From: a virus
Taxonomy: Duplodnaviria > Heunggongvirae > Uroviricota > Caudoviricetes
Strand: one strand, 5' to 3'
Length of the DNA: 36,632 nt
Virus record (IMG/VR): IMGVR_UViG_2541047758_000014
Position numbers and translations under genes: made by a program. Under the pieces are notes generated by a model that saw nothing but the letters and a program-made list of their open reading frames with translations, had not been told where the DNA came from and did no database searches. The stretch's first letter is position 1. Every line of letters starts with the position of its first letter. Below, one piece after another: positions 11,045-36,632 of the stretch.

Positions 11045-11851
11045 CTATTTTTTACGCAAAGGGGGTAATTTATATCGCAAATTAACCTCTTTCGTTTCAA
11101 TATCTCTTGGCCCCTTCTTTTTATCAAAAAACAACCAGATATTGAATTTTCGCTCTGTCGGCCAGGTATCGTGCCGTAATGATTCCCACCCAAGATAAGA
11201 AGCGATTTTCTCTGCCATAGCCAGTTTCGCTGGAGAAGTGGCTTTCCTTTGATATGCACACATGACAGCCCCTAATAAAAAATCGACAAGCTGAATATGT
11301 TCCGATGTTTTTGAGTCTTTTGTTTCAACTAGTTTAATTATGTCCTTGCGCCCATATTTTCGGGCCAGAGAATGGTTGGCAATTATGTGAAACTCTTCAT
11401 CGGCTTTTTTGTAACGAGATGGCAGGGGATCAACTTCTATAAGGAACTCACATTCCGCATGAGGCCACCTTTGGATCACGTTACCTATTTTTGTTTCAAT
11501 AAGCTTGCAAAAATGCTTACGCATTGCAAGATCATAATCCCCACCATGATATGATTTTTCTACTTTAGACTTCTCAACAATAATACAGTGAAAAGCCATC
11601 CAGTTGTGCCTAAAAAACACATCAATGACGTCGCTATAAAAAGCTGCATTACGCTTTGAATGTGCTTTCTGCCATTTGAGCTCATCACTGCATCCATGCT
11701 TTTTTCTCAAATCCTGTACCATGCGAGTGAGTTCAGCGCGCCTCTGATAGCTCATCCAGAGACTCCCAAACCCGTAGAATGGCTGCCCATCAACGCCAGA
11801 TTCATCACAGGCAACATGCCATATCATTTTTTTCTGATTGTTATCTTTCAT
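11045..11851 (-). CDS. DUF3800-like protein, candidate anti-phage or accessory cargo at the A-Q hotspot
   Basis: 268 aa; N-terminal WHVACDESG and C-terminal IQLVDFLLGAV motifs as I recall for DUF3800; gene is clearly more AT-rich than the phage backbone; opposite strand to its neighbours. Confidence 0.6.
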   Translation of the reverse strand: MKDNNQKKMIWHVACDESGVDGQPFYGFGSLWMSYQRRAELTRMVQDLRKKHGCSDELKWQKAHSKRNAAFYSDVIDVFFRHNWMAFHCIIVEKSKVEKSYHGGDYDLAMRKHFCKLIETKIGNVIQRWPHAECEFLIEVDPLPSRYKKADEEFHIIANHSLARKYGRKDIIKLVETKDSKTSEHIQLVDFLLGAVMCAYQRKATSPAKLAMAEKIASYLGWESLRHDTWPTERKFNIWLFFDKKKGPRDIETKEVNLRYKLPPLRKK

Positions 11852-15259: not shown

Positions 15260-15412
15260 TGCTCCCCCTGAGTAATTACAGGAAGATTACCCGCGCGCGA
15301 AACCGTTCTCCTTAACCCCCTGTTCTGACCGTTTTCTTACAACAAAAGCCCTTTGTATCAGCCTGTTACGCTTTGCCATCATGACTGAAGAACCAGTCAG
15401 AGGGGCAAAACT

Positions 15413-19683: not shown

Positions 19684-20087
19684 AGCTCTGGCCCACGCTG
19701 GGCGTCGCTTTCCTTCTGATTGCCGCATGGGGAACATCCATGCGTCTGTCGTGGTCGCTGGGCCGGGAGAACGCCAGAAACGAAGCGCAGGCCAGCGCCC
19801 TGAAACGTACCGTCGACACCCTGAATATCATCAGCGCCGGGGTACAGGATATGCAGCAGGTGCTGGCGCAACTCCGCGTGGAAAATCAACAGCGAAATCA
19901 GGACGGAGAGGCCAGACGTGAACAGCTACGCAACGATATTGCAAAAGATGAATGCGCCCACGCTTTGCCTGACGCTCGTTTTACTGACAGGTTGCGCAGG
20001 CACGCAGAACGCGCCACGGCCAGCGCCGTCAGTCCGGCTTATACCGCAGACGCTGACCATACCGGTAACGCCTCCCCCCTTCCCTGA
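19680..20087 (+). CDS. Rz/LysB-like inner-membrane spanin
   Basis: Start at ATG 19680 (MKLWPTLGVAFLLIAAWG...), N-terminal TM then coiled coil; inside track ORF 19536..20087. Confidence 0.6.
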   Translation: MKLWPTLGVAFLLIAAWGTSMRLSWSLGRENARNEAQASALKRTVDTLNIISAGVQDMQQVLAQLRVENQQRNQDGEARREQLRNDIAKDECAHALPDARFTDRLRRHAERATASAVSPAYTADADHTGNASPLP

Positions 20088-23670: not shown

Positions 23671-25524
23671 ATGAGTACCACAACACGAAAATTTAAAACC
23701 GTTATCACCGATACGGGTGCAAAAAAATTAGCGCAGGCAGCCGCGCCAGATGGTAAGCCTGTCCGCCTGACTCATATGGCCGTGGGCGACGGTGGCGGTA
23801 CATTGCCCACACCTGACAGTAAGCAGACCCGTCTGGTGCATGAGGTGTGGCGACATACTGTTAATCGCGTCATCCTGGACGCAACACATCAGAACCGCAT
23901 TATTGCAGAGCTGGTTATTCCTCCTGAAACGGGCGGATTCTGGATCCGGGAAATTGGTGTATTTGATGAGCACGGCGATTTAATCGCGGTGGGCAATACT
24001 GCCGAAAGTTACAAGCCAGCCGTTGCCGAAGGGTCCGGTCGTGCACAAACATTTCGCACCATTCTGACCGTATCCAGCACAGCCACCGTGGCGCTTACCG
24101 TGGATAACACCATGGTGATGGCCACAGTGGATTACGTGGATGACAAACTGAAAGAGCATGAACAGTCACGACGTCACCCGGACGCCTCGCTGACCGCAAA
24201 AGGCTTTGTTCAACTCAGTAGCGCCACCAACAGCGCGTCTGAAACGCAGGCTGCAACGCCGAAAGCAGTAAAGGCCGCGTATGACCTTGCTAACGCAAAA
24301 TATACCGCTCAGGACGCCACGACGGCACAAAAAGGGATAGTCCAGCTCAGTAGTGCCACCAACAGCACGTCTGAAACACTGGCCGCGACATCGAAAGCGG
24401 TTAAGGCGGTAATGGATGAAACGAACAAGAAAGCGCCCTTAAACAGTCCTGCGCTGACCGGAACGCCAACAACGCCAACTGCGCGACAGGGAACGAATAA
24501 TACCCAAATCGCAAGCACGGCTTTCGTTATGGCTGCGATTGCCGCCCTTGTAGATTCGTCACCTGACGCACTGAATACGCTGAACGAGTTAGCGGCGGCG
24601 CTGGGAAACGACCCGAATTTTGCGACCACCATGACTAACGCGCTTGCGGGTAAGCAACCGAAAGATGCCACCCTGACGGCGCTGGCCGGGCTTGCTACTG
24701 CGGCAGACAGGTTTCCGTATTTTACGGGGAATGATGTCGCCAGCCTGGCACCCCTGACAAAAGTCGGGCGGGATATTCTTGCGAAATCGACCGTTGCTGC
24801 CGTTATCGAATACCTCGGTTTACGAGAACTCGGCACAAGCGGGGAGAAAATACCGTTACTCAGTACAGCGAATACCTGGACCAATCGACAAACATTCAGC
24901 GGTGGCCTTTCTGGGGAACTGTCCGGCAATGCCGCTACTGCAACAAAGCTGAAAACAGCACGAAAAATTGCTGGAGTTGGTTTTGATGGTTCTAGCGATA
25001 TTTCAATTAGTGCCAAAAATGTCAATGCATTTGCACTCCGACAAACAGGTAATACTGTTAATGGTGATACATCCGTTGGATGGAATTGGGATAGTGGTGC
25101 ATATAACGCCATGATTGGTGGTGCATCTGCATTAATTCTTCACTTTAATATAAATGCTGGTAGCTGTCCTGCCGTACAATTCCGTGTGAATTATAAAAAT
25201 GGTGGCATTTCCTACAGGTCGGCTCGTGATGGTTATGGGTTTGAATTAGGTTGGTCAGATTTCTATACCACGACACGAAAACCTTCAGCGGGAGATGTTG
25301 GTGCATATACGCGGGCAGAATGTAACTCAAGGTTTATTACAGGTATTCGCCTTGGCGGTCTGTCATCTGTTCAGACATGGAATGGTCCCGGCTGGTCTGA
25401 CAGGTCAGGTTATGTCGTTACGGGTTCAGTTAACGGAAACCGTGATGAATTAATTGATAAAACACAGGCAAGGCCAATTCAGTATTGCATTAATGGGACG
25501 TGGTATAACGCGGGGAGTATTTAA
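23671..25524 (+). CDS. H: Tail fibre protein (P2 gpH-like); variable C-terminal part lies on the invertible segment
   Basis: 617 aa; internal duplication QLSSATNS-SET-AAT-KAVKA; C-terminus RPIQYCINGTWYNAGSI parallels the alternative cassette on the other strand. Confidence 0.85.
   Translation: MSTTTRKFKTVITDTGAKKLAQAAAPDGKPVRLTHMAVGDGGGTLPTPDSKQTRLVHEVWRHTVNRVILDATHQNRIIAELVIPPETGGFWIREIGVFDEHGDLIAVGNTAESYKPAVAEGSGRAQTFRTILTVSSTATVALTVDNTMVMATVDYVDDKLKEHEQSRRHPDASLTAKGFVQLSSATNSASETQAATPKAVKAAYDLANAKYTAQDATTAQKGIVQLSSATNSTSETLAATSKAVKAVMDETNKKAPLNSPALTGTPTTPTARQGTNNTQIASTAFVMAAIAALVDSSPDALNTLNELAAALGNDPNFATTMTNALAGKQPKDATLTALAGLATAADRFPYFTGNDVASLAPLTKVGRDILAKSTVAAVIEYLGLRELGTSGEKIPLLSTANTWTNRQTFSGGLSGELSGNAATATKLKTARKIAGVGFDGSSDISISAKNVNAFALRQTGNTVNGDTSVGWNWDSGAYNAMIGGASALILHFNINAGSCPAVQFRVNYKNGGISYRSARDGYGFELGWSDFYTTTRKPSAGDVGAYTRAECNSRFITGIRLGGLSSVQTWNGPGWSDRSGYVVTGSVNGNRDELIDKTQARPIQYCINGTWYNAGSI
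24802..24827. other. gix/hix-like crossover site inside H (left end of invertible segment)
   Basis: ttatcgaatacctcggtttacgagaa matches the reverse complement of the 27481..27506 site at 21 of 26 positions with a perfect 11-bp core cctcggtttac. Confidence 0.7.
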
Positions 25525-25526
25525 CG

Positions 25527-26060
25527 ATGATGCACTTAAAAAACATTACTGCTGGCAACCCTAAAACAAAAGAGCAATACCAGCTAACAAAGCAATTTAA
25601 CATCAAATGGCTTTATTCAGATGATGGAAAAAACTGGTATGAGGAACAAAAGAATTTCCAGCCAGACACTTTGAAAATGGTCTATGACCATAACGGCGTT
25701 ATTATTTGTATTGAAAAGGATGTTTCAGCAATTAATCCGGAAGGCGCAAGCGTCGTTGAATTACCTGATATTACAGCAAATCGCCGGGCTGATATTTCGG
25801 GGAAATGGTTGTTCAAAGATGGCGTAGTGATAAAGCGAACTTATACCGAGGAAGAGCAGAGGCAACAAGCGGAAAATGAAAAGCAAAGCCTGTTGCAACT
25901 TGTCAGGGATAAAACCCAGCTATGGGACTCACAGCTACGGCTGGGCATCATTTCCGACGAGAATAAACAAAAATTAACCGAGTGGATGCTCTATGCGCAG
26001 AAAGTCGAATCTACAGACACCTCCAGCCTGCCAGTAACGTTTCCCGAACAACCAGAATGA
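25527..26060 (+). CDS. G: Tail fibre assembly protein (P2 gpG-like)
   Basis: 177 aa; N-terminus [22 protein letters not shown] conserved with the inverted copy. Confidence 0.8.
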   Translation: MMHLKNITAGNPKTKEQYQLTKQFNIKWLYSDDGKNWYEEQKNFQPDTLKMVYDHNGVIICIEKDVSAINPEGASVVELPDITANRRADISGKWLFKDGVVIKRTYTEEEQRQQAENEKQSLLQLVRDKTQLWDSQLRLGIISDENKQKLTEWMLYAQKVESTDTSSLPVTFPEQPE

Positions 26061-26062
26061 GA

Positions 26063-26090
26063 GAAGGCCCGATATTGGGCCTTAATTTTT
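26063..26090. terminator. Bidirectional hairpin between convergent G and G'
   Basis: aaggccc-gatatt-gggcctt at 26064..26083 followed by aattttt. Confidence 0.5.
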
Positions 26091-26616
26091 ACTCAGGCTT
26101 TTGTGGCCATTCGGGATTTGCTGTATCCACACGGCTGACCAGAACGCTGTAGCGTTCCCATGACTCCAGTCGTGTGCGTTCCTCATCCGTCGCCATATTC
26201 AGCCTGACAGCGCGTTCCAGTGGCTGAATAACGCTTTCAGCTTCAGAAAGCAACGCGACCTTTTGTGATTCGGCCTGTTGTTGCTGTTCGTCTGCTGTAT
26301 AAATCCGCTTAACCACAGTTCCGTTCTTAAACATCCACTTCCCTGAATCATCGGCACGACGATTGGCTGTTATATCTGGAATCTCAACGACACTAAAGCC
26401 TTCGGGATTAAGCGTTGAGGCATCTTTGGTTATGGCAACAATAATATTATTTTCGTCGTATACAATCTTTATGGTGTCGTCCTGAAAGTTATTTACTTCC
26501 TCATACCAGTTTTTACCGTCTTCGGACCATAACCAGATAACATCAAAATTCTTTGTTAGCTGATATTGTTCTTTTGTTTTTGGATTTCCGGACTTAATAT
26601 TTTTTAAATGCTGCAT
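26089..26616 (-). CDS. Alternative tail fibre assembly protein (G')
   Basis: 175 aa; [24 protein letters not shown]... paralogous to G, opposite strand. Confidence 0.8.
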
Positions 26617-26619
26617 AAT

Positions 26620-27498
26620 TTACACCTGTGCGACGTTATACCATGTGCCATTGATGTATTTTTGTATTGGTCTGAAGATGGCTTCATCATCGCCATCTAC
26701 TTCACCAATGATTCTTAATCCGGTAATTGCGTGTCCGGCTTTTTCATAACGACCACCACGCGCCATCAATTGAACAACACGCGTACCCAGGCGAACATCT
26801 TTTACATAGCGTGAATCAAAATTCCCCCAGTTGCTGGGCTGTATCTGACCGTTAACAGAAAATATTACCGAGTTATCTGTATTTCGCTGGCTATAGAAAT
26901 GCCATCCTGCCTCATCGCCTAACTCTGCAACTACTGGACGGGTTGAAGCACCCCATAAATTAAACGTTGCATTCTTTGTGGAGGTGTTGGAGCTGGATAG
27001 CGAGAACTTTTTACTATCACCTGCCTGAATGTTTTTAAAAGCAATAGCAACTCCATTCTGAAAGCGGAATACTCGCTGACTATTAGCGTAAACATCCAGA
27101 ATGCCATCACCATTCTGTTTGAATCCGGTGTCATTATCACCAAGAACAATAGAGCTACCACCTAACGCATTCGTCGTACCAACTCCAAGACTGCCATTAA
27201 TGACGGCATTTACCAGAATATTTAGTGCATCCCATTTCAGCGTCATCAGGTCTTTTGTTGTGGTGCTCTGGCGGCTTCTCCATTTGAAATATTCATTGCC
27301 GTTGTCGCCTGTTTCAAACCACATGTATGAATCAGTGTCACCATCAGCATCATTTTTAAATCCAATCTTCGCCCAGTCAGTATTTCGAATCCAGGCAAGG
27401 ATTGAGTCATTTTCAAAAGTAAGCCCACCGGACAAGGTATCGCCATTTTTTTGCACGGCGTTACCAGCCCTGTTTACCGTTTCCTGTAAACCGAGGTT
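26620..27498 (-). CDS. Alternative tail fibre C-terminal cassette (promoterless; fused to H constant part after inversion)
   Basis: Track ORF 26620..27456; frame stays open upstream through the gix site to 27498; C-terminus RPIQKYINGTWYNVAQV parallels H. Confidence 0.7.
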   Translation of the reverse strand, partial: NLGLQETVNRAGNAVQKNGDTLSGGLTFENDSILAWIRNTDWAKIGFKNDADGDTDSYMWFETGDNGNEYFKWRSRQSTTTKDLMTLKWDALNILVNAVINGSLGVGTTNALGGSSIVLGDNDTGFKQNGDGILDVYANSQRVFRFQNGVAIAFKNIQAGDSKKFSLSSSNTSTKNATFNLWGASTRPVVAELGDEAGWHFYSQRNTDNSVIFSVNGQIQPSNWGNFDSRYVKDVRLGTRVVQLMARGGRYEKAGHAITGLRIIGEVDGDDEAIFRPIQKYINGTWYNVAQV

Positions 27499-27506
27499 TT
27501 AAATAA
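27481..27506. other. gix-like crossover site (right end of invertible segment)
   Basis: ttcctgtaaaccgaggttttaaataa, nearly identical to the Mu gix sequence as I recall it (TTCCTGTAAACCGAGGTTTTGGATAA). Confidence 0.75.
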
Positions 27507-27542
27507 TGGCCGTTTCTGGCCTGCATGGCATGATTTGCGCTT

Positions 27543-28160
27543 TTGGACGGGAGATTCAGTGTGCTGATTGGCTATGTAAGGGTATCAACAAATGACCAGA
27601 ATACAGACCTGCAACGAAACGCTCTTGTTTGTGCAGGATGTGAACAAATATTTGAAGATAAATTAAGCGGGACAAAGACAGACCGACCGGGATTAAAACG
27701 CGCTTTAAAGCGCCTTCAAAAAGGTGACACGCTGGTTGTCTGGAAACTGGATCGCCTCGGGCGAAGCATGAAACATCTGATTTCTCTCGTCGGGGAACTA
27801 CGGGAGCGAGGGATTAATTTTCGCAGTCTGACCGACAGCATAGACACATCTTCTCCAATGGGGCGTTTTTTCTTCCACGTGATGGGTGCCCTGGCTGAAA
27901 TGGAACGTGAATTAATTGTTGAACGTACACTGGCCGGGCTGGCGGCAGCGCGCGCAAGGGGGCGCACAGGCGGACGTCGACCGAAGCTGACAAAAGAACA
28001 GCATGAGCAAATAGCAAGGCTAATCAAAAACGGGCACGACAGAAAACAACTGGCAATAATTTACGGCATTGGCACATCGACGATTTATCGTTATCACCCT
28101 GTAGGCGATATACAGACTGAAGAAACAACCGGGCAGACTCAGGAAAATGAAAACCGCTAA
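27543..28160 (+). CDS. Serine DNA invertase (Gin/Pin/Cin/Hin family)
   Basis: Contains LIGYVRVSTNDQNTDLQRNAL, the conserved N-terminus with the catalytic Ser, and a C-terminal HTH; track start is non-ATG (TTG at 27543), GTG at 27561 is a likely true start. Confidence 0.85.
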   Translation: MDGRFSVLIGYVRVSTNDQNTDLQRNALVCAGCEQIFEDKLSGTKTDRPGLKRALKRLQKGDTLVVWKLDRLGRSMKHLISLVGELRERGINFRSLTDSIDTSSPMGRFFFHVMGALAEMERELIVERTLAGLAAARARGRTGGRRPKLTKEQHEQIARLIKNGHDRKQLAIIYGIGTSTIYRYHPVGDIQTEETTGQTQENENR

Positions 28161-28184
28161 TCTGACCATTAGCGGTTTTTGTGT
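28150..28184. terminator. Bidirectional terminator between convergent invertase and U
   Basis: Perfect 11-bp arms aaaccgctaat / attagcggttt with 6-nt loop, followed by ttgtgtt; T-rich on the other side too. Confidence 0.6.
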
Positions 28185-28188
28185 TAAA

Positions 28189-28683
28189 TCAGAACAGCCC
28201 TTTAACTGAACTGGCCGCGCTGTTAAGAGATGATGTCACCTTATCTTTGAAGCCGGACAGCATATCACTGAACGATGAGGATTGCAGGCGCTCCCGCAAA
28301 TCCTCATCACAGCGTTCAAGGGTCAGTGAAAATTCTATCTTTTTCGCCTTACCGTAGCGATCAAACTCGGAACGGGTCGTATTCGTTTCAGTCAGCACAT
28401 ACATGCCGTAAATCTGCCCGACACCATCAATCAGAGGCCAGGGGCGTCCTGTATATGCCTGCGTGGTCAGCAACGAAAGCGACACTTCGCCACCTGTAAT
28501 TTCAGGATAAAGCACGCCGGAAAGCACAATGCGATCATCACCTGCACCTATATACTGCCAGCTTGCTGAACGGTTAACGCGTTCATTTTTCACATGCCGC
28601 CAGCTTTTGTTTTGCTGTAACTGCTGATGCGGCAGTGTGCGCAGCTCAAAAACAAACATGCCGTAGATCATCATCATGACCAT
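28189..28683 (-). CDS. U: Tail protein (P2 gpU-like)
   Basis: 164 aa; directly downstream of the tape measure gene on the same strand. Confidence 0.8.
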   Translation of the reverse strand: MVMMMIYGMFVFELRTLPHQQLQQNKSWRHVKNERVNRSASWQYIGAGDDRIVLSGVLYPEITGGEVSLSLLTTQAYTGRPWPLIDGVGQIYGMYVLTETNTTRSEFDRYGKAKKIEFSLTLERCDEDLRERLQSSSFSDMLSGFKDKVTSSLNSAASSVKGLF

Positions 28684-28689
28684 GACTCC

Positions 28690-31533
28690 TCAATCTTTAT
28701 CGTAAAAACTGCCACGTCCGGCACGGGCGCGCCGTTCCATCTCTGCCCTGACCATTTCACCGACCAGTTTCGCCAGTTCGCGGGGATTCTGCGTAACAAC
28801 GTTATGCAGATGAACATGAATTTCACCGCCAAATCTGGAGACAGCAGGCTCCCGATTACGGGAAGCTGCAGGAACTGATGCCACTGGCGATCGTATGGCC
28901 TCCGCCACCGGGCGGGAGCTGGCCGCAACAACAGGGACCAGCGCCGGAGGCAGCGGAGCCGGGACTACGGGTGTGATATTAATTGCGGGGGCAGGCTTAC
29001 TGACCTGCGCAATCTTCCGCTCCTGCCACTCCCCACGAACAGCAAGTGCGCGGGGCAGGTTCTTAAAGACAATATCGCCAGGGCCAATGCGTTTTTTCGT
29101 CTCATCAACCAGCTTACCTGTGTTATCAGCAATTTTGCTGAGTCTGCGTAGCGTCCCGGTATTGCTGTCTGTGAGCGGTTTGTTGTCTTTGGGTTTATCA
29201 CCTCCGGTGCCATTGCCATTTTCCACAGGCTTCGGCGGATTGATTTTCGCAAGGTCCCCCTGAAGCAAGGCAACCTTGTCCTGAAGAATGGCCGCACGCT
29301 GTGCGTCTTCGATTTTCTTGCGCGCCCTTTCCGCTTCATCCGGAAGCACACCGAGCTTTTCAAGTATCCACGCCAGCGTATCCAGCAACATTTTTGCAGG
29401 TATCAGAACAAGTTGTAACGCACCGCCAAGAACGTTACCGAATATCTCGCCAGCACTGGTACATTTATCCAGCGTTTCCTTGCTGGACTCCATCGGTGAC
29501 AGCAGCGATTTAAACCAGTTAAACACCTGGCTTATCCCGCTTCCGATTGCGTCAAAAACAGGACCAAACCGTTCAAAGGTTTCGCGCAACGGGGCCAGCC
29601 GCTCCATAATCCCACTGAACACCCCGGCAAAAAATGCCCTGATTGGGTCCCAGTATTTCCAGATAAGAATGGCAGCTCCGGCAAGCGCAGCCACGATAAG
29701 ACCAACCGGACTGAACAGCGCCCCGATAGCGCCCCCCAGTAACGAAACGGAACCCGTCACCATTCCCCATAGTGCTGGCAGAACCCTGACAGCATTCATT
29801 GATCCGGTCAGGAGGGAAAAACCAAGACGCAGTTTTGCCAGCGGGCCAGCAAGCACACCAATAGCCAGCGACAACGAGCCAACCGTTGCAGTCATTGCCA
29901 GCAGTGCACCGCCTGCAATCAGTAGCTGGCGCGTCAGTGCGGGATGGGCCTGCGCCAGCGCCGTCACCTTTGATACCACACGCGTGAGCCACTGCGTGAC
30001 AGAACGCAGCGGACCGTCAATCAGATCTGCAATGCGGATGCGCAACCCTTCCCATGCACTGCTGAGTGATTTCAGATCGCCGTCAAGGTTGTTGGCCATA
30101 ACCTTTGCCGTGCGTTCAGCCTCACCGCGCGCGCCTTCAAGTTCTTTTCTCAGTTTGGGTAAGGAGCCGTCACCTGCCGCATCAACGAGGGCCATAAATG
30201 ATGTGAAAGCCTCTTCTCCGGCAATGTCCTTAAAGAACGATACCCGGTCAACTTCCCCGTATTTGCGGGTAGCTTTATAAAGGTCAGCCAGCACATCCTC
30301 CATCGGGCGCATTTTGCCCCCGGCATCCGAGACAGACACGCCAAGCTCTTTCAGCGCCTCTGCTGCCGCCTTTGGCGGTGATGCCAGACGAGCCAGGCTG
30401 GCACGCATTGCCGTACCAGCATCACTCCCCCTGATACCCATATTCGCCAGCACGCCCGCCATCGCTGCGGCCTGCTCCAGCGATATTCCCAGCTTACCCG
30501 CCACCGGACCTGCATATTTCATGGTTTCACCCAGTGCGCGAAGGTCAGTGTTGGTACGGGTAAACGCTGCGGTGAGTGTGTCGCCGACCCGGTCCATCTG
30601 GTCAGCAGAAAGACCGAACTGCGTCAGAATATTTGAGCCAATATCCGCCGTCTCACCGAGGTCCATACCGCCAGCCGTTGCCATGCTCAGTACGCCAGGG
30701 AGCGCAGCCTGAATGGCCTGTGGTGTGAAGCCAGCCATTGCAAGAAATGCCTGCCCACTGGCGGCATCGCCTGCGGTGAACTGCGTTTCAGAGCCAAGTT
30801 TTAACGCCTGCTCACGCAGCGCCTTAAACTGCGGGCTGTTTTTGTCGATTCGCGTCAGTGCCTGAACGCGGGACATCTCTTTCCCGAACCCGATCGCAGG
30901 CTGCAAAAAACGCCCGGCAGCATAGCCGCCCGCCGCTGCCGCACCAATTGCCAGCGCACCACCTGTTTTCAGTTTTCCCGCTGTTTCCTGCGCGCGCGAA
31001 TACCGCTCACGCGCCTGCGTTACACGCGCAAGCGCCTGCCGTTCGCGTTCAAGCTGGTTGTTGTACTGTTCGGTGCGTCTGATGGCCTGCTGGATGGTGT
31101 TATCGCTGCCTGTCAGGGAAATGCCGTGGCGTTTCAGCTCTCCGCCAATCTCCCGCATTTTCTGAATTTCCCGTGTGCGCGATTCATTCAGGCGTTCAAG
31201 CCGGGTGCTTAACTGCTGCATCAGCTTTTGTTGTTTTTCGCTGAGCACTGTACCCGTGCGTTGTAACTGATTAAGGGCGTTAAGCTGGCGTCGTGCTTTC
31301 ACGATACCCGCATCCGCTTTACTGACAGCGTCGCGGGCGCGCTCAAATGAACGCGCCTGACGCTCGAGATTTTTGATCGCCCCCTGCGTTCGCTGGATGG
31401 AGTCACCAAACTGCCCCATCAGGCGGCGGGCGTTTTCGGCAGGCCGGGTCAGCCTGTCAACGGCGCTGAAAGCGACCCGGATGTCAAGAGTCTTCATTGT
31501 CTGCATTCCCGCTGCGAAGTGCCGCCCGCTCAC
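28690..31533 (-). CDS. T: Tail tape measure protein (P2 gpT-like)
   Basis: 947 aa; Ala/Gly-rich with coiled-coil N-terminus and hydrophobic central region. Confidence 0.85.
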   Translation of the reverse strand: MSGRHFAAGMQTMKTLDIRVAFSAVDRLTRPAENARRLMGQFGDSIQRTQGAIKNLERQARSFERARDAVSKADAGIVKARRQLNALNQLQRTGTVLSEKQQKLMQQLSTRLERLNESRTREIQKMREIGGELKRHGISLTGSDNTIQQAIRRTEQYNNQLERERQALARVTQARERYSRAQETAGKLKTGGALAIGAAAAGGYAAGRFLQPAIGFGKEMSRVQALTRIDKNSPQFKALREQALKLGSETQFTAGDAASGQAFLAMAGFTPQAIQAALPGVLSMATAGGMDLGETADIGSNILTQFGLSADQMDRVGDTLTAAFTRTNTDLRALGETMKYAGPVAGKLGISLEQAAAMAGVLANMGIRGSDAGTAMRASLARLASPPKAAAEALKELGVSVSDAGGKMRPMEDVLADLYKATRKYGEVDRVSFFKDIAGEEAFTSFMALVDAAGDGSLPKLRKELEGARGEAERTAKVMANNLDGDLKSLSSAWEGLRIRIADLIDGPLRSVTQWLTRVVSKVTALAQAHPALTRQLLIAGGALLAMTATVGSLSLAIGVLAGPLAKLRLGFSLLTGSMNAVRVLPALWGMVTGSVSLLGGAIGALFSPVGLIVAALAGAAILIWKYWDPIRAFFAGVFSGIMERLAPLRETFERFGPVFDAIGSGISQVFNWFKSLLSPMESSKETLDKCTSAGEIFGNVLGGALQLVLIPAKMLLDTLAWILEKLGVLPDEAERARKKIEDAQRAAILQDKVALLQGDLAKINPPKPVENGNGTGGDKPKDNKPLTDSNTGTLRRLSKIADNTGKLVDETKKRIGPGDIVFKNLPRALAVRGEWQERKIAQVSKPAPAINITPVVPAPLPPALVPVVAASSRPVAEAIRSPVASVPAASRNREPAVSRFGGEIHVHLHNVVTQNPRELAKLVGEMVRAEMERRARAGRGSFYDKD

Positions 31534-32013
31534 GCCAGCTAACCACTTCGCCGGGCGTCATCATGAAGATTTCGGCGGGCGACCAGTTAAAAATAACGGC
31601 AATATCTGCCACAAAGTCTTCTATGTGCTCAAAGCACACAACCGTGATCAGGCTTCCGTCGCCTGTTCGTTCTTCCCGCCAGAGTCCGCACCGCTCAAAA
31701 AATTTACGGCAACCACACATAACTGAATAAAGTCACGGGATGCCATTTTTTTGATCGTCACTTCATCCAGTCGCGGTGATGTCACGCGTGACAGCAGCGT
31801 AAACATGGATTCCGCTTTCAGATTCAGCACATCAGACAGCGACAAATCTCGCAGAGATCCAGCCTGCTCAATAGCCCCGGTGATCTCCACATACGTGATT
31901 TTTTCGCCGCCTCGCTCAATTGGTTGGGTAAGTTTTACGCCACGCTCACTGGTTTCTTTCACAGTGTCAGCAACTACCGTGTTTTCGGTATCGATGTTTT
32001 TCGTCTCTTTCAT
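31484..32013 (-). CDS. E+E' fusion by programmed -1 frameshift
   Basis: After a -1 slip at TTTTTTG the reading continues ...AVNF-FERCGLWREERTG... into the 31484..31720 frame; matches the conserved E/E' arrangement of P2-type tails. Confidence 0.6.
31648..32013 (-). CDS. E: Tail assembly chaperone (P2 gpE-like)
   Basis: 121 aa; contains slippery heptamer T-TTT-TTG (plus coordinates 31696..31702) in the E frame. Confidence 0.75.
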   Translation of the reverse strand: MKETKNIDTENTVVADTVKETSERGVKLTQPIERGGEKITYVEITGAIEQAGSLRDLSLSDVLNLKAESMFTLLSRVTSPRLDEVTIKKMASRDFIQLCVVAVNFLSGADSGGKNEQATEA

Positions 32014-32067
32014 CAGGAAACTCCTTTCAGTCAGAGGCGACGCACTGCGCCGCCTGCATATTACTTA

Positions 32068-32580
32068 TCAGCCAAGCCCAAGCGCGGAACGGATGCGATC
32101 GGGCACAATGTCCTTGCCGTCCTTCCGGTAAATGAAGTTCAGCAGGTCAATCTCCCACAGCGGGCGATCGTTAACGCTCAGCTTGTAGTAGGTGTTTTTA
32201 ATGGCGTAAGAGTGTGATGTGGCTTCGCCCTGTTTGGCTTCCCCCATATCAATTTCCGTCACACGTCCGCGCATTTCGACTTCATACAGGTCGCTTTCTG
32301 CATCGGTGTAGTATTCACCCGCAAAACGCAGCAGCGTGCCGTCAATCGTGCCGCCATACTTAAGGAACAGCTCACGAACTGCGCCCCCCATGACAAAGCT
32401 CGCATCAAGCGCGGAGTCGTCCAGACCGAGATCAATACTTACCGCACCCATCATGCCACCACCCCGGTAGCTGTCGGTTTTGCGCGTCAGCTTAGGCAGA
32501 GTGACGGACGTCACCTTACCCACTTCGTTTTCACCATCCACAAACAGCGTAAAAAAGCGAAGATGTTTTGGCACAGCCAT
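32068..32580 (-). CDS. FII: Tail tube protein (P2 gpFII-like)
   Basis: 170 aa, downstream of and coupled to the sheath gene. Confidence 0.85.
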   Translation of the reverse strand: MAVPKHLRFFTLFVDGENEVGKVTSVTLPKLTRKTDSYRGGGMMGAVSIDLGLDDSALDASFVMGGAVRELFLKYGGTIDGTLLRFAGEYYTDAESDLYEVEMRGRVTEIDMGEAKQGEATSHSYAIKNTYYKLSVNDRPLWEIDLLNFIYRKDGKDIVPDRIRSALGLG

Positions 32581-33764
32581 CAGGCACCTCCCAGCACCGC
32601 AAATGCGGGTTCAAAGTATTCATCAGTAAACGTCTGGTAAAGCTCCATATCTTCCAGCGGGGGAACAGGCGTATATTTGTAGCGAATACGCACACGCCCC
32701 TGACGTAAATCCGTGGTGCTGTTATCCACCACGTCATACCAGCACTCCGCGCCAATCAGTTTCCCGGCAGTAACCAGTGAATCCAGTTTTGCCCTGATGG
32801 CACTGATAACATCCTTCACGTTCGCAGGCGTCAGTGGACTGTCGATGGTTTCAAACTGCGCTTCCGCAATTGAATCAGCCAACACCTGTGCGGTTCGGGT
32901 ATACACCTCAAAGATGTAGGCGTTCGTTTCCGGTGTGCGGTTGCCCCAGAAGCGGAACCCGTTGCGACGAATAATGGTCGTGATTTCTTTGTTGTTGAGG
33001 CTGTTGGCATCACTGTCTTCGGCCTGCAACGACCAGAACACATGCCTGGACATCCCCAGCACATTTTTAACCGGAACGTTGGACAGCGATTTGTGCCAGC
33101 CCTGTTCATGGTCAATGTACGCACGGAGGCCGCACGCATAGGCAGGCGCGGGGAACGTTTCGTTTTTGCCACTTTTCGGGTTGTAGGCGATGAAGTCCGG
33201 CCATAAGAGCATCACCTCACGTTCGTTGAATTTCTGGCGGTAGGTAATCGCCTCAGCCATCGTGTTACAGCCGTGACATGAGGCATACACAAACGCGCGC
33301 AGTTTACCTGCAATCACGCACAGGGATTTTGTTACAGCCTCCGTGTCCAGCTCCGGCGCGGCCAGAATACGCGGACGGTATCCGATGCTTTCATCCTGCT
33401 CTGCAACAAGCAGCGCATACATCCCCGTATAGCTGCCGTCATCCTCAGAACCACCGATAACCAGTTGATCCTGCGTCTTTCCGTCTTCTTCTTTGTGTTC
33501 AGCCACGCGAACGACGATCACCTTTGTGCTCACCTGGTCTGCAATGGCCTTAAGCGCACGATAAAGCGTCCCCGTTGTCCCGCATTTTCCCAGCACGTCA
33601 TTGACGCGGGTCAGCAGTGTGGGCTTGTTCAGCGGGAACAGCTTCGCGTCCGCATCATCCGCCGTTGCCACGATACCGATAACGCTGGAATCAACATCGT
33701 TAATCGCTGTTACCAGGTCGGTATTTTCCGTAACACGGGCACCATGAAAACGAGTTTCACTCAT
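32580..33764 (-). CDS. FI: Contractile tail sheath protein (P2 gpFI-like)
   Basis: 394 aa; FPLNKP...GTLYRALKAIADQ resembles P2 FI. Confidence 0.9.
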   Translation of the reverse strand: MSETRFHGARVTENTDLVTAINDVDSSVIGIVATADDADAKLFPLNKPTLLTRVNDVLGKCGTTGTLYRALKAIADQVSTKVIVVRVAEHKEEDGKTQDQLVIGGSEDDGSYTGMYALLVAEQDESIGYRPRILAAPELDTEAVTKSLCVIAGKLRAFVYASCHGCNTMAEAITYRQKFNEREVMLLWPDFIAYNPKSGKNETFPAPAYACGLRAYIDHEQGWHKSLSNVPVKNVLGMSRHVFWSLQAEDSDANSLNNKEITTIIRRNGFRFWGNRTPETNAYIFEVYTRTAQVLADSIAEAQFETIDSPLTPANVKDVISAIRAKLDSLVTAGKLIGAECWYDVVDNSTTDLRQGRVRIRYKYTPVPPLEDMELYQTFTDEYFEPAFAVLGGA

Positions 33765-33921
33765 AGCTTCAGCCCCTTGTATCCGTTAAATGATTCGGCA
33801 ACAATCATCACCCACCACGCGCGTAATCTCACCCCTGCGCCGTTCTCCCGACCCGGCGACAACAAAAAGCAGTAACCCCCTCCGCACGCACATGCGACCA
33901 TGCCGCACAGGGAGGAAACAG

Positions 33922-35031
33922 ATGACCGACACCACCATGCAATTGCTCAGTCAGGGCACAGACCCCGTGAAAATGCCGGATTTTGATATTCTTGCGGAGG
34001 GTAAAACGCTGTCAGGCGTGGCAGAGCGCCTGATGAGCCTGTCACTGACCGACAACCGGGGATTTGAGGCGGACCAGCTCACCATCACGCTGGATGATGC
34101 GGATGGTCAGTTGCAGCTACCGCCACGGGGCGCGCGCCTGACGGTTCTCATTGGCTGGAAAGGAGAACCGCTGACAGAAAAAGGCACTTACATTGTTGAT
34201 GAAATCGCTCACGAAGGACCGCCGGACAGGCTGACTGTTTCAGCCAGAAGCGCAGATTTTCGGGATGAATTTAACGTTAAACGTGAGGTGTCCTGGCATG
34301 ATGTGACCCTTGAGCGTGTGGTATCCGCCATCGCTCATCGGTATGGTCTGAAACCACAAATCAGCGAAATGCTGATGGATATCGAAATCGACCACGCCGA
34401 CCAGACCGAAGAAAGCGACATGTCCTTCCTTACGCGCATGGCGGAAATGCTGGGCGCAATCACCACGGTAAAAAGCGGTAATCTGTTATTCATCATGCCA
34501 GGCGGTGGCGTGAACGCACAGGGCCAGCCGTTGCCCTCGTTCGCCATCACGCGCAGCAGTGGCGATCGCCATCAGTTCCGCATTGCTGACCGCGAAGCGT
34601 ATACGGGGGTACGCGCTTACTGGCTTGATCTTAATTACGGGAAAAAGAAAAAAGTCAGCGTGAAACGCCGCAAACCGCCAAAACCCAAAAAGGAGAAAAG
34701 CAGCAGCCGTGAAGGTGATTATATGGAAGGCGCAGAAGGCAATGTGTTTGTGTTACGCAAGACTTATCAGAACGAGCAGGCAGCAAGACGCGCAGCGGCG
34801 GCAAAGTGGCAGCAGCTACAACGCGGAGCCGCAGCGTTCTCCATCACACTGGCACGTGGACGCGCAGAACTCTACCCCGAAATGCATGGCACGGTAACAG
34901 GATTTAAAAGCGAAATTGATAATCAGGACTGGATTATTGCAAAAGCCGAGCACACCATTGATAACAGTGGCTTTACCACGCAGCTTGAGCTTGAAGCCAA
35001 AATCCCGGAATGGATAGCAGAAACAGAGTAA
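33922..35031 (+). CDS. D: Tail protein D (late control gene D family)
   Basis: Start at ATG 33922 with RBS gggagga inside track ORF 33790..35031; 369 aa. Confidence 0.85.
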   Translation: MTDTTMQLLSQGTDPVKMPDFDILAEGKTLSGVAERLMSLSLTDNRGFEADQLTITLDDADGQLQLPPRGARLTVLIGWKGEPLTEKGTYIVDEIAHEGPPDRLTVSARSADFRDEFNVKREVSWHDVTLERVVSAIAHRYGLKPQISEMLMDIEIDHADQTEESDMSFLTRMAEMLGAITTVKSGNLLFIMPGGGVNAQGQPLPSFAITRSSGDRHQFRIADREAYTGVRAYWLDLNYGKKKKVSVKRRKPPKPKKEKSSSREGDYMEGAEGNVFVLRKTYQNEQAARRAAAAKWQQLQRGAAAFSITLARGRAELYPEMHGTVTGFKSEIDNQDWIIAKAEHTIDNSGFTTQLELEAKIPEWIAETE

Positions 35032-35225
35032 ACAACTTAGATGCATTAGCCCTGACATTTGCTAACGCGCTTACAGCAAGAATCATAACCAATCTGACAG
35101 CCTACCCGGTGTCAAAATCAGAAGAGCCTTACATTAGAATATGTTAATTTGTAGCAAACAAATTTACACACAAATGATTACTGCTGAAATAGCCCCCATA
35201 AATACCATGTCAAAGGATCCATGTT

Positions 35226-35891
35226 ATGAATATGCAAATTTTTATCGCACCAGCAGCCACAGTTGCTGCAGTCTGCCTTGCTGCATATTTTGCTTTACGA
35301 AATGAACGTAAAAAGAAAGCACTTGAGATTAGAACAACTCAACTAGATCGAATATCAGAGCTAGTAAACCGAGCATCTACCAATTTGATGCAATATACAG
35401 GTACTCTTGCCTCTATACTGGAAGCGCACGCCAAAGATAATTATCTACCGAACAAAAAATTTGACATTAATGTAATTAGCAAATGGAAAGATTGCCTCGA
35501 TGAGAGTGAGGTCTGGGCGATTGATAGACAGCAACTAAGAACATGTCAGCACAGTCTGGAGTTTCATCGTGAAAAAGAATGGGCTGAATGGAAAAAAATA
35601 ATTCCACCATTACTTGATAAAATTGACCAATTTTTTCTCATATCTAAGCCAGGGCAACCTGTTACGTTTATAAATGGCCAAAACAAAACAGCTGATGAAC
35701 TACTTGTTTTCTCAAGATATTTGAGAAAACAAACAGCAGAAATTGAATCAGTACGTCAGCTGTTACTTTCTCAAATGAGAGAGGAATTCATCGAGTTAAC
35801 TAGCTTTGAACCTGTCACAATGTTTAGCTTATTTAAATCAATAAAGAAAAATGTCATGCAATTTTTCTGTATCAGTGCTCTTAAAAATTGA
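35226..35891 (+). CDS. AT-rich moron: N-terminally membrane-anchored protein of unknown function
   Basis: 221 aa; N-terminal TM IFIAPAATVAAVCLAAYFAL; markedly AT-rich; own RBS (aagga) and downstream terminator; inserted between D and ogr. Confidence 0.6.
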   Translation: MNMQIFIAPAATVAAVCLAAYFALRNERKKKALEIRTTQLDRISELVNRASTNLMQYTGTLASILEAHAKDNYLPNKKFDINVISKWKDCLDESEVWAIDRQQLRTCQHSLEFHREKEWAEWKKIIPPLLDKIDQFFLISKPGQPVTFINGQNKTADELLVFSRYLRKQTAEIESVRQLLLSQMREEFIELTSFEPVTMFSLFKSIKKNVMQFFCISALKN

Positions 35892-35906
35892 CGCTCTGTT
35901 GCAAGC

Positions 35907-35938
35907 AACCCCAGTGTTAAACTGGGGTTATTCTTGCT
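35907..35938 (+). terminator. Rho-independent terminator after the moron gene
   Basis: aaccccagt-gttaa-actggggtt followed by attcttgct. Confidence 0.6.
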
Positions 35939-36040
35939 AAGAGACCTTTCTACGGCATCAGTAAACAAAACGAACTATCAGTTGGAGTCTGAGCAAGTTC
36001 AGCCTAAACTAGCGACAGCACTACGTTAAGGGAGGTCGCT

Positions 36041-36301
36041 ATGTTCCGTTGTCCGCTTTGTGGCGCATCTGCCCGTATCCGCACCAGTCGTCCGGAAAAT
36101 GATTCAAACACCGTGCGGCAAAAGTATTACCAGTGTAACAACCTGGAATGCGGCGTATGCTTCTCAACACTGGAAGCTTTCCATAAATTCACATCGAAAC
36201 ACGCCTCCGGCATCCACTCTTCAGAAGATATCCCGTGGCATGAGCTGCCAGCTTCACACAGGGGAAACAATCAGATGAGCTTGCCTTTACCTCAGAATTA
36301 A
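36041..36301 (+). CDS. ogr: Ogr-family zinc-finger late transcription activator
   Basis: MFRCPLCGASARIRTSR...YYQCNNLECGVCF matches the P2 Ogr C-x2-C...C-x4-C pattern; RBS aagggagg. Confidence 0.85.
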   Translation: MFRCPLCGASARIRTSRPENDSNTVRQKYYQCNNLECGVCFSTLEAFHKFTSKHASGIHSSEDIPWHELPASHRGNNQMSLPLPQN

Positions 36302-36361
36302 CAGGCAGAATTGCCGGAGTAACAAAAAAGCGATAGATTACGCGCGGGTGCCTTTCGGCTG

Positions 36362-36574
36362 ATGGTCGGAGGGAATACCCGAAGGCCAGATGTGGAAAGG
36401 CCCCGGAAAACATCTCTGTTTAACCGAGGCCCTAACCGCATTACCTTGACAAGTGAAAGGTTAGCGCCTCTCCGGAAAAGGAGCAAGTGCTATGTCGCAA
36501 AAATCGCTTACGGCCATCACGTTCTGCGTGACGGCAATCCTCATCATCTGGATGTTGCACGGTTCGCTGTGTGA
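36362..36574 (+). CDS. mok-like overlapping reading frame of the hok locus
   Basis: 70 aa ORF overlapping the hok frame, as in hok/mok/sok loci; no sequence signature of its own. Confidence 0.35.
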   Translation: MVGGNTRRPDVERPRKTSLFNRGPNRITLTSERLAPLRKRSKCYVAKIAYGHHVLRDGNPHHLDVARFAV

Positions 36575-36632
36575 AATACGGATGAGCTTCTGGGGAGCGG
36601 AGTTTGCGGCGTTCTTACAGTGTAAGCAGTAA
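36492..36632 (+). CDS. hok: Hok/Gef-family type I toxin
   Basis: 46 aa MSQKSLTAITFCVTAILIIWMLHGSLCEIRMSFWGAEFAAFLQCKQ; SLCEIR and AAFL motifs match Hok/HokA; below ORF-track size cutoff; stop is the last codon of the window. Confidence 0.75.
   Translation: MSQKSLTAITFCVTAILIIWMLHGSLCEIRMSFWGAEFAAFLQCKQ

Follow-up and report, generated by a model that had tools for sequence, protein, structure and literature searches.

The stretch of DNA analysed here (the window, 36,632 nt) is a P88-like (Xuanwuvirus-type) prophage of the P2 family. It has a P2-like (Peduoviridae) tail module, with FI, FII, T, gpU, gpD and Ogr/Delta all scoring above the Pfam curated cut-offs. The following genes and features make up the tail region (Pfam families in parentheses).

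23671..25524, plus strand: tail fibre gene H (Phage_tail_fib, Phage_fiber_2); its C-terminal part is the one read in the present orientation of the invertible segment
25527..26060, plus strand: tail fibre assembly gene G (Caudo_TAP, E = 1e-36)
27543..28160, plus strand: Gin/Cin-type serine DNA invertase gene (Resolvase and HTH_7)
28147..28182, both strands: two-way intrinsic terminator of the invertase gene and U (from fold energy and T-runs)
28189..28683, minus strand: tail gene U (Phage_P2_GpU, E = 5.5e-39)
28690..31497, minus strand: tape measure gene T (PhageMin_Tail; ORF to 31533)
31484..32013, minus strand: chaperone genes E (31648-32013) and E+E' (to 31484), from a -1 frameshift heptamer and the annotation of relatives
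32068..32580, minus strand: tail tube gene FII (Phage_tube, E = 6e-47)
32580..33764, minus strand: tail sheath gene FI (Phage_sheath_1, Gp18_domIII_N, Phage_sheath_1C)
33922..35031, plus strand: baseplate hub / late control gene D (Phage_GPD)
36041..36301, plus strand: ogr, Ogr/Delta zinc-finger late activator gene (Ogr_Delta, E = 5e-14)

The gene assignments made in the initial annotation agree with these Pfam matches, E having a sub-threshold match only (Phage_TAC_7). Pfam and the strands of the ORFs also bear out its observation of a minus-strand block of U, T, E/E', FII and FI enclosed by plus-strand genes, G and the invertase gene on one side and D and ogr on the other. A GpE family protein is annotated at the position of E in relatives. 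The slippery heptamer TTTTTTG at 31702-31696 (minus strand) is identical to that of P2 and stands in the same codon context, and after it the -1 frame (E') is open to 31484. Gene T likely starts at ATG 31497, giving a length of 2808 nt, which matches the P88 annotation.

For gene D the most likely start is 33922, judging from a GGGAGG Shine-Dalgarno sequence (33910-33915) located 7 nt upstream of this ATG and from the start codons of relatives, which align there. A longer in-frame ORF begins at 33790. This start is probably unused and was discarded, since the Shine-Dalgarno sequence and the ATG at 33922 both align with the relatives, in which the upstream part is non-coding. In typical members of the clade ogr begins approximately 43 nt past D. 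Compared with the P88 group, the window carries an extra insert of approximately 1 kb between the two genes, and the gap holds a terminator-like hairpin and an ORF (35226-35891) for which no family match was found in Pfam or PADLOC.

The canonical Peduovirus order (FI-FII-E-T-U-D-ogr on the strand of V-W-J-I-H-G, with D last in the F operon) is not matched by the window. The P2 record confirms this canonical order and the single operon extending from FI to D, as initially described. P2 has the same tail gene set, the same E/E' heptamer and an Ogr-type late activator, the proteins of the two being only 46-49% identical. P2, however, has all of them on a single strand, with D last in the F operon and overlapping the stop codon of U, whereas in the window the FI...U block is reversed and a separate upstream region precedes D.

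The invertase gene and the invertible segment

The probable start of the invertase gene is GTG 27561; the gene is annotated at 588-600 nt in P88 and RM8082. Between H and the invertase gene the following features were recognized.

24809..24828, minus strand: left gix-like crossover site, 3 mismatches to TTCCTGTAAACCGAGGTTTT; one arm of inverted repeat I2
26089..27456, minus strand: alternative cassette consisting of G' (26089-26616) and an alternative H C-terminus (26620-27456) (Caudo_TAP, Gp34_trimer)
27481..27500, plus strand: right gix-like crossover site, exact TTCCTGTAAACCGAGGTTTT; pairs with the left arm 24809-24828 in I2

The query pattern was copied from 27481-27500 itself, therefore the exact match at that site is by construction; we take its sequence to resemble the gix/cix core of Mu and P1. 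For the left site, the number of chance matches expected at 3 mismatches was 0. The two sites bound a genuine 2.7-kb tail-fibre invertible segment. Fels-2 (Felsduovirus) and Cartapus (Elveevirus) resemble the window in having an invertible H/G cassette with a Gin-type invertase gene just past the tail-fibre genes, but unlike it they have FI...U-D-ogr collinear with H/G, which is the P2 arrangement.

On its other side the invertase gene faces U, and the hairpin that was initially proposed to be common to the two genes proved to be strong and two-way. It occupies 28147-28182, has a stem of 12-15 bp with T-runs on both strands, and folds with -17.1 kcal/mol on the plus strand (z = -4.6) and -15.7 kcal/mol on the minus strand (z = -4.2).

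Distribution of the gene order

Identical order and strands were found in phages P88, P884B11, Citrobacter phage PhiSM, 520873, 503458 and 500465-2, all six being 95-97% identical in nucleotide sequence over the region from the invertase gene to ogr. Positions 25000-36632 of the window match P88 with 97.3% identity over 70%. The P88 group shares with the window the plus-strand invertase gene, the minus-strand U...FI block, the plus-strand D and an FI-D spacer of 157 nt, and differs from it in the tail-fibre cassettes. The order characteristic of the P88-like clade, with J-I-H... on the plus strand, U-T-E-FII-FI on the minus strand, D-ogr on the plus strand and a short FI-D spacer, is present in the window. 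P88 can be induced and lyses many strains, and PhiSM is able both to plaque and to establish lysogeny (PMC5285337; PMC6456863).

Of 5426 complete E. coli genomes, 1380 have some match to the 1-kb FI/D junction, and in 1355 of these, about a quarter of the total, it is intact. Identity reaches at least 95% in 1373 of the 1382 matching E. coli records. The invertase/U junction recurs in 621 complete E. coli genomes, and 1571 of the 5426 have an intact P2-type U-D junction. The initial suggestion of an assembly artefact, in which the contig would have been mis-joined or mis-oriented at 28160/28189 and 33764/33922, was founded on the departure from the P2 order only, and with the same order in six sequenced phages, the two junctions recurring in these independent complete genomes (FI/D in 1355, invertase/U in 621) and both also present in phage genomes sequenced from particles, its probability is negligible.

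Alignment to related prophages extended the comparison to 129 loci, with D 62-100% identical to that of the window: 43 genome loci containing both genes (from approximately 25 genera), 80 IMG/VR loci, two Klebsiella phages (genera Reginaelenavirus and Reipivirus) and the loci L001-L004. FI was on the minus and D on the plus strand in every one of them (43 of 43 and 80 of 80 in the two large sets), and none was collinear. The order is old, spanning many Enterobacterales genera and three Peduoviridae genera (Xuanwuvirus, Reginaelenavirus and Reipivirus). In the collinear phages P2, Fels-2, Cartapus and KP12, D is at most 53% identical to that of the window. This gap in D identity (at least 62% versus at most 53%) suggests a single origin of the inversion.

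The order is also independent of the invertase. On the invertase hypothesis, the neighbouring Gin/Cin-type enzyme would have inverted the 5.7-kb block at degenerate gix sites, either recently or with the block still able to switch. In its favour, an active-looking invertase gene adjoins one of the breakpoints, and serine invertases occasionally use pseudo-sites. Against this origin, gix-like sites with up to 3 mismatches to TTCCTGTAAACCGAGGTTTT are confined to 24809-24828 and 27481-27500 in the whole window, and no inverted repeat flanking the U...FI block (28160-28190 / 33764-33922) was among the longest 25 of 49 pairs; the initial annotation had likewise seen neither at the junctions. The same arrangement is found in relatives devoid of the invertase gene, which is absent from L003 and from most loci of this order, whereas Fels-2 and Cartapus, which possess it, keep the collinear order. 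The opposite orientation of the block was found in 0 of the 129 related loci, and the FI-D spacer consists of conserved regulatory blocks and bears no recombination scar. The chance that the invertase made the inversion is thus vanishingly small. Of the large inversion considered initially, the inverted position of the block relative to P2 stands; its recent or invertase-made character does not, since all 129 loci share the order, most of them without an invertase. Because so many relatives, P88 and PhiSM among them, have this arrangement as their normal order, both the recent or invertase-made inversion and the artefact are refuted.

An explicit description of the P88-type order was not found in a literature search, nor did a text search of the P88 paper find wording on rearrangement or gene order, so the order counts as known from deposited, annotated genomes. 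As such, it is ordinary and already known.

The FI-D spacer as a putative divergent late promoter region

With FI...U reversed, D needs a promoter of its own, as was pointed out initially. A candidate can be predicted in the 157-bp FI-D spacer, which contains one Ogr-type dyad. The features of the spacer, together with a second copy of the dyad, are as follows.

33805..33810, minus strand: predicted -10 hexamer of the FI late promoter, GATGAT (GATTAT/GAATAT at a fixed offset in relatives)
33844..33861, both strands: Ogr-type activator dyad TCT-N12-ACA, reading TGT-N12-AGA on the FI strand (centre 33852.5; from conservation and matrix)
33896..33901, plus strand: predicted -10 hexamer of the D late promoter, GACCAT (fixed-offset block CGCGCGC.TG.AA.cAT in relatives)
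15324..15341, both strands: second dyad copy GTTCT-N12-ACAACAAAAG in the P/O divergent spacer (matrix score 23.1)

Transcription from P2-type late promoters requires Ogr, which binds the dyad, and the alpha subunit of RNA polymerase. The consensus quoted for such promoters is an upstream partial dyad, TGT-N12-ACA (PMC3931495). The dyad reads TCT-N12-ACA in the window and TGT-N12-ACA in relatives, and the half-site proximal to the FI promoter is AGA here, not ACA. It is kept in 43 of 46 distinct sequences of a first set and in 78 of 81 loci of a second set; at least five of the six remaining ones have variants (CCT in L020, L027 and L046, TCT...AGA in L123 and L124, TTT in L070). With a matrix built solely from the FI/D dyads of distant relatives, the site scored 29.0, compared to a shuffle maximum of 15.7. 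Exactly two matches in the window exceeded this maximum, one in the FI/D and one in the P/O spacer, and the two spacers carry the same GTTCT-N12-ACAACAAAAG motif. The matrix scan detected no PV-type dyad above background near V. A weaker related site was noticed at 19745-19773, inside the lysB-like gene.

Gap-free alignments of the spacers, anchored on the dyad, showed T[C/G]T-N12-ACA in the relatives with -10-like blocks at fixed offsets on either side. In the window GATGAT is located 42.5-47.5 nt and GACCAT 43.5-48.5 nt from the centre of the dyad, which places the predicted starts at approximately 33798 for FI and 33908 for D, that is, around +55 in both directions. This is close to the mapped starts of the P2 promoters PO, PP and PF (+55.5 to +57.5 from the dyad centre). 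Both predicted hexamers are weak, and by consensus the late promoters of P2 are weak as well.

Two P2 promoter regions are comparable to the spacer. P2 PF has a TGT-N12-(A/C)CA site upstream of FI with the TGT half distal to FI, as in the window. The closer parallel is the PP/PO pair: the P2 record annotates one activator site for pO and pP, 55.5 nt from both mapped starts, and the FI-D spacer similarly has one dyad between divergent late units, approximately 55 nt from the predicted starts. In P2 this divergent design has been mapped experimentally for P and O only, whereas its FI/D counterpart in the window is a prediction.

The layout of the spacer suggests that D has a late promoter of its own and that this promoter and the FI promoter use one activator site in common. 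We infer promoter function for the conserved hexamers, binding of Ogr to the dyad, and service of both directions by a single site. Alternatively, the order could be native and the dyad serve FI only, D being expressed from an Ogr-independent promoter or by some other signal; the conserved block upstream of D could then be, for example, an mRNA leader or a translational element. GACCAT is poor as a -10 sequence, the predicted D leader is very short (only about 14 nt), and the CGCGCGC tract could have another role. On the other hand, the distance between the D-side block and the dyad is fixed and gap-free even in relatives with D only 62% identical, in contrast to the variable flanking spacer. 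It resembles the cores of P2 PF and PO (GCGCA..TGAAAnT) and has the same offset from the activator site, and P2 provides a precedent of one site serving two divergent late promoters. Moreover, a consensus scan of the region found no sigma-70 promoter on the plus strand of the FI-D spacer, and D is an essential structural gene, required alongside FI...U. We therefore consider a dyad reserved for FI improbable. The nearest sigma-70 match of the region is on the minus strand inside D (34015-33988).

Proposed origin of the inversion and its consequences

The explanation that we hold with good confidence is that the order is native to the clade, that the inversion is ancient, and that the FI and D units would both start in the FI-D spacer, with a shared activator site. 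The arrangement H-G-[invertible segment]-invertase(+), U-T-E'/E-FII-FI(-), D-ogr(+) is inherited in a deep Enterobacterales clade of P2-like phages. On this explanation, the ancestral F operon was split when the segment comprising the PF promoter and FI...U was turned round relative to P2. This inversion is old, was fixed long ago and is unconnected with the adjacent Gin-type invertase. FI...U is read leftwards, ending at the two-way terminator shared with the invertase gene, and D is read rightwards; both units would start in the 157-bp spacer with the single Ogr-type dyad approximately 55 bp upstream of each predicted start.

Some further proposals seem to us only slightly better than even. 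Inversion may have brought D next to the rear side of the PF activator site, and it may have been tolerated because the Ogr site is dyad-symmetric; a second core promoter could then have evolved on the D side, so that two divergent late tail units would depend on one Ogr site, in a replica of the PP/PO design. Since ogr begins approximately 43 nt past D in typical members of the clade, co-transcription of D and ogr is possible, which would provide positive feedback for the late activator. With the same reservation, the site at 19745-19773 in the lysB-like gene may mark the promoter of the R...G tail genes.

Not all P2-like prophages follow the model of P2. With 1355 of 5426 complete E. coli genomes against 1571, the P88-type order is nearly as frequent in this species as that of P2, therefore prophage scanners should treat it as neither a rearrangement nor a mis-assembly. 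The new element, a modest one, is the shared-site FI/D promoter that we infer. If this is true, the FI-D spacer would act as a bidirectional Ogr-dependent promoter, the second of its kind, in which one activator site serves both directions, and it would show that an essential operon can be split by inversion without loss of co-regulation.

Gene order of the prophage

The 36.6-kb window carries a complete-looking P2-family prophage, running from the integrase to ogr. All gene calls of the initial annotation in the flagged region (28161-33921) were borne out by Pfam, and these calls, together with the comparison with P2, confirm that FI to U are on the minus strand and that G, the invertase gene and D are on the plus strand. 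In P2, in contrast, FI-FII-E-T-U-D-ogr are on a single strand and are transcribed from PF. Judged from its gene content the locus is a P2-family tail module, but one that lacks the canonical P2 order; its sequence identity and its gene order place it in the P88-like clade.

Genes of the prophage considered here (Pfam, called by Pfam match)
1011-2138, minus: integrase
11045-11851, minus: 268-aa ORF, PADLOC candidate defence family PDC-M04A (E = 2.6e-35)
25527-26060, plus: G (Pfam)
26089-27456, minus: alternative G'/H' cassette (Pfam)
27543-28160, plus: Gin/Cin-type serine invertase (Pfam)
28189-28683, minus: U (Pfam)
28690-31533, minus: T, start probably 31497 (Pfam)
31648-32013, minus: E, sub-threshold chaperone match only
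32068-32580, minus: FII (Pfam)
32580-33764, minus: FI (Pfam)
ending at 35031, plus: D (Pfam)
35226-35891, plus: 221-aa ORF
36041-36301, plus: ogr, Ogr/Delta protein

E contains a slippery heptamer, TTTTTTG, identical to that of P2 and followed by an open -1 frame, E'. The 221-aa ORF, for which Pfam and PADLOC gave no match, lies in a stretch of low GC (~38%) inserted between D and ogr, with a terminator-like hairpin (35907-35929) on its 3' side. This region is a hot spot for insertions in relatives, where ogr begins anywhere between 43 nt and over 4 kb past D. Low GC also marks the position of the 268-aa ORF, which has the replication genes on one side and Q on the other.

Occurrence of the inverted order

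When the segment 25000-36632 was compared with phage records by megablast, it was matched at 95-97% identity in Escherichia phage P88 (the type species of Xuanwuvirus), P884B11, Citrobacter phage PhiSM, 520873, 503458, 500465-2 and others, whose annotations show invertase (plus), U to FI (minus) and D (plus), as in the window. In the deposited annotation of Citrobacter phage Shae_phiSM (OR565851) names are one gene out of step, the sheath gene being called 'late control gene D protein' and D 'ogr'. The PhiSM genome encodes a sheath, yet the 2019 paper describes a long non-contractile tail. Both P88 and PhiSM are functional temperate phages able to form plaques (PMC5285337; PMC6456863), so a phage with the inverted order can complete its life cycle.

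A 1-kb probe spanning the FI/D junction was searched in 5426 complete E. coli genomes. The junction was intact in 1355 of them, with 1373 of 1382 matching records at 95% identity or higher; the invertase/U junction was intact in 621 genomes and the canonical P2 U-D junction, taken as a reference, in 1571. The P88-type and P2-type orders are thus about equally common in E. coli. Recurrence of the order in phage records and in these complete genomes excludes the assembly artefact that had been proposed as one cause.

Relatives were gathered with the D protein, and neighbouring genes were placed by tblastn. In all 43 loci with both genes from one-genome-per-species contigs (genera including Salmonella, Edwardsiella, Serratia, Erwinia, Pantoea, Klebsiella, Kosakonia, Brenneria, Pectobacterium and Rouxiella), J, I and H, and likewise D-ogr, lie on the plus strand, with U-T-E-FII-FI between them on the minus strand. 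The same order was found in 80 of 80 IMG/VR viral contigs and in two Klebsiella phages, classified as Reginaelenavirus and Reipivirus. Four further D-carrying loci (L001-L004) bring the total to 129, with D 62-100% identical and none of them collinear; the arrangement, first read as an anomaly, is the normal one in its relatives. In every one of the collinear phages P2, Fels-2, Cartapus and KP12 D is at most 53% identical, and in the gene table of Burkholderia phage KS5 D adjoins U on the same strand. The order is almost certainly native and lineage-wide, and the clean split in D identity fits one old inversion inherited by the whole clade.

The Trabulsiella odontotermitis locus L049 (NZ_JNGH01000101) is truly a rearranged prophage, with H and I inverted and J displaced to about 10 kb away, beside an invertase. 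Two loci labelled Firmicutes, from Vagococcus sp. WN89Y (L006) and a Planococcaceae MAG (L047), have D genes 98-99% identical to the E. coli version and are likely to be enterobacterial DNA present by contamination or mis-binning.

The invertase and the block junctions

The other proposed cause, inversion by the invertase, is refuted. Most inverted-order loci have no invertase (in E. coli 2013C-4830 a serine acetyltransferase gene takes its place), whereas Fels-2 and Cartapus, which have an invertible tail-fibre segment and an invertase, keep the P2 order. With up to 3 mismatches allowed, gix-like sequences occur in the window at 24809-24828 and 27481-27500 only, where they bound a Gin-type invertible H/G tail-fibre switch of about 2.7 kb (24809-27500) with alternative H C-termini and G/G' chaperones. 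The window search found no comparable site at either junction of the 5.7-kb block, and no inverted repeat there among the 25 longest of 49 pairs, as the initial annotation had stated; the block has none of the features looked for in a Gin-type invertible segment. The hairpin noted between the invertase gene and U (28147-28182) is real and strong, with folding energies of -17.1 (plus strand) and -15.7 kcal/mol (minus strand), a z of about -4.4 and T-runs on each strand; it can therefore act as a two-way terminator for the converging invertase and U transcripts.

The FI-D spacer and expression of D

The earlier suggestion that D needs its own promoter was right. The FI-D spacer, 157 nt long (127-198 nt in nearly all relatives), gave no sigma-70 consensus promoter on its plus strand. 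In the rearranged L049 it is 259 nt, the D start lying about 80 nt further from the predicted D-side promoter block.

Alignment of 46 distinct spacers revealed three conserved islands amid variable sequence: a dyad, T[G/C]T-N12-ACA, followed by ACAAAAA (window TCT 33844-33846, ACA 33859-33861); on the FI side, GGGATTATCAC, as read on the FI strand (window hexamer GATGAT, 33810-33805); and, on the D side, CGCGCGC.TG.AA.cAT (window hexamer GACCAT, 33896-33901). In a gap-free alignment anchored on the dyad both flanking blocks were in register, so their distances to the dyad are fixed, the hexamers lying 42.5-48.5 nt from its centre on each side. TGT-N12-ACA is the consensus of Ogr-dependent P2 late promoters (as quoted in PMC3931495), and the window dyad has this P2-type motif. 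With a matrix built solely from the dyads of distant relatives, which served as an independent test, just two sites in the whole window exceeded the best score in shuffled sequence (15.7): the FI/D dyad (29.0) and one in the P/O spacer (23.1, 15321-15349), both reading GTTCT-N12-ACAACAAAAG.

The P2 reference record has a single 'activator binding site; pO, pP promoters' centred 55.5 nt from both mapped divergent starts. From the hexamer offsets, transcription of FI would start near 33798 and that of D near 33908, each at about +55; this would be the PP/PO geometry. The D-side core resembles those of P2 PF and PO (GCGCA..TGAAAnT) at equal offset. The FI/D control region is predicted to act like PP/PO. 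Taking conservation and the P2 analogy together, FI to U and D probably form two divergent late units served by one shared Ogr site. A plausible history is an inversion that broke the genome upstream of the PF activator site and again between U and D. It would have brought the far side of the symmetric activator site beside D, leaving just a core promoter to arise at a suitable distance. In keeping with a break between U and D, D could not be aligned with P2 D over its first ~18 residues.

On the minus strand, 19745-19773 (CGTTCTCCCGGCCCAGCGACCAC) is identical to the FI/D dyad region at 20 of 23 positions (next best in the window, 16 of 23), and its plus strand continues at late-promoter spacing (with 19796-19812) into GCGCCCTGAAACGTACC, which is similar to the core of P2 PF. 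The R-S-V-W-J-I-H-G tail genes may thus have a late promoter within the lysB-like (DUF2570) gene; the candidate is weak because its matrix score was only 9.2.

Since the P88-like order was already on record in annotated public phage genomes and is carried by about a quarter of complete E. coli genomes, the finding, taken as an anomaly, is an ordinary one. Its sole new element is the predicted second bidirectional late promoter with a shared site, which is testable.
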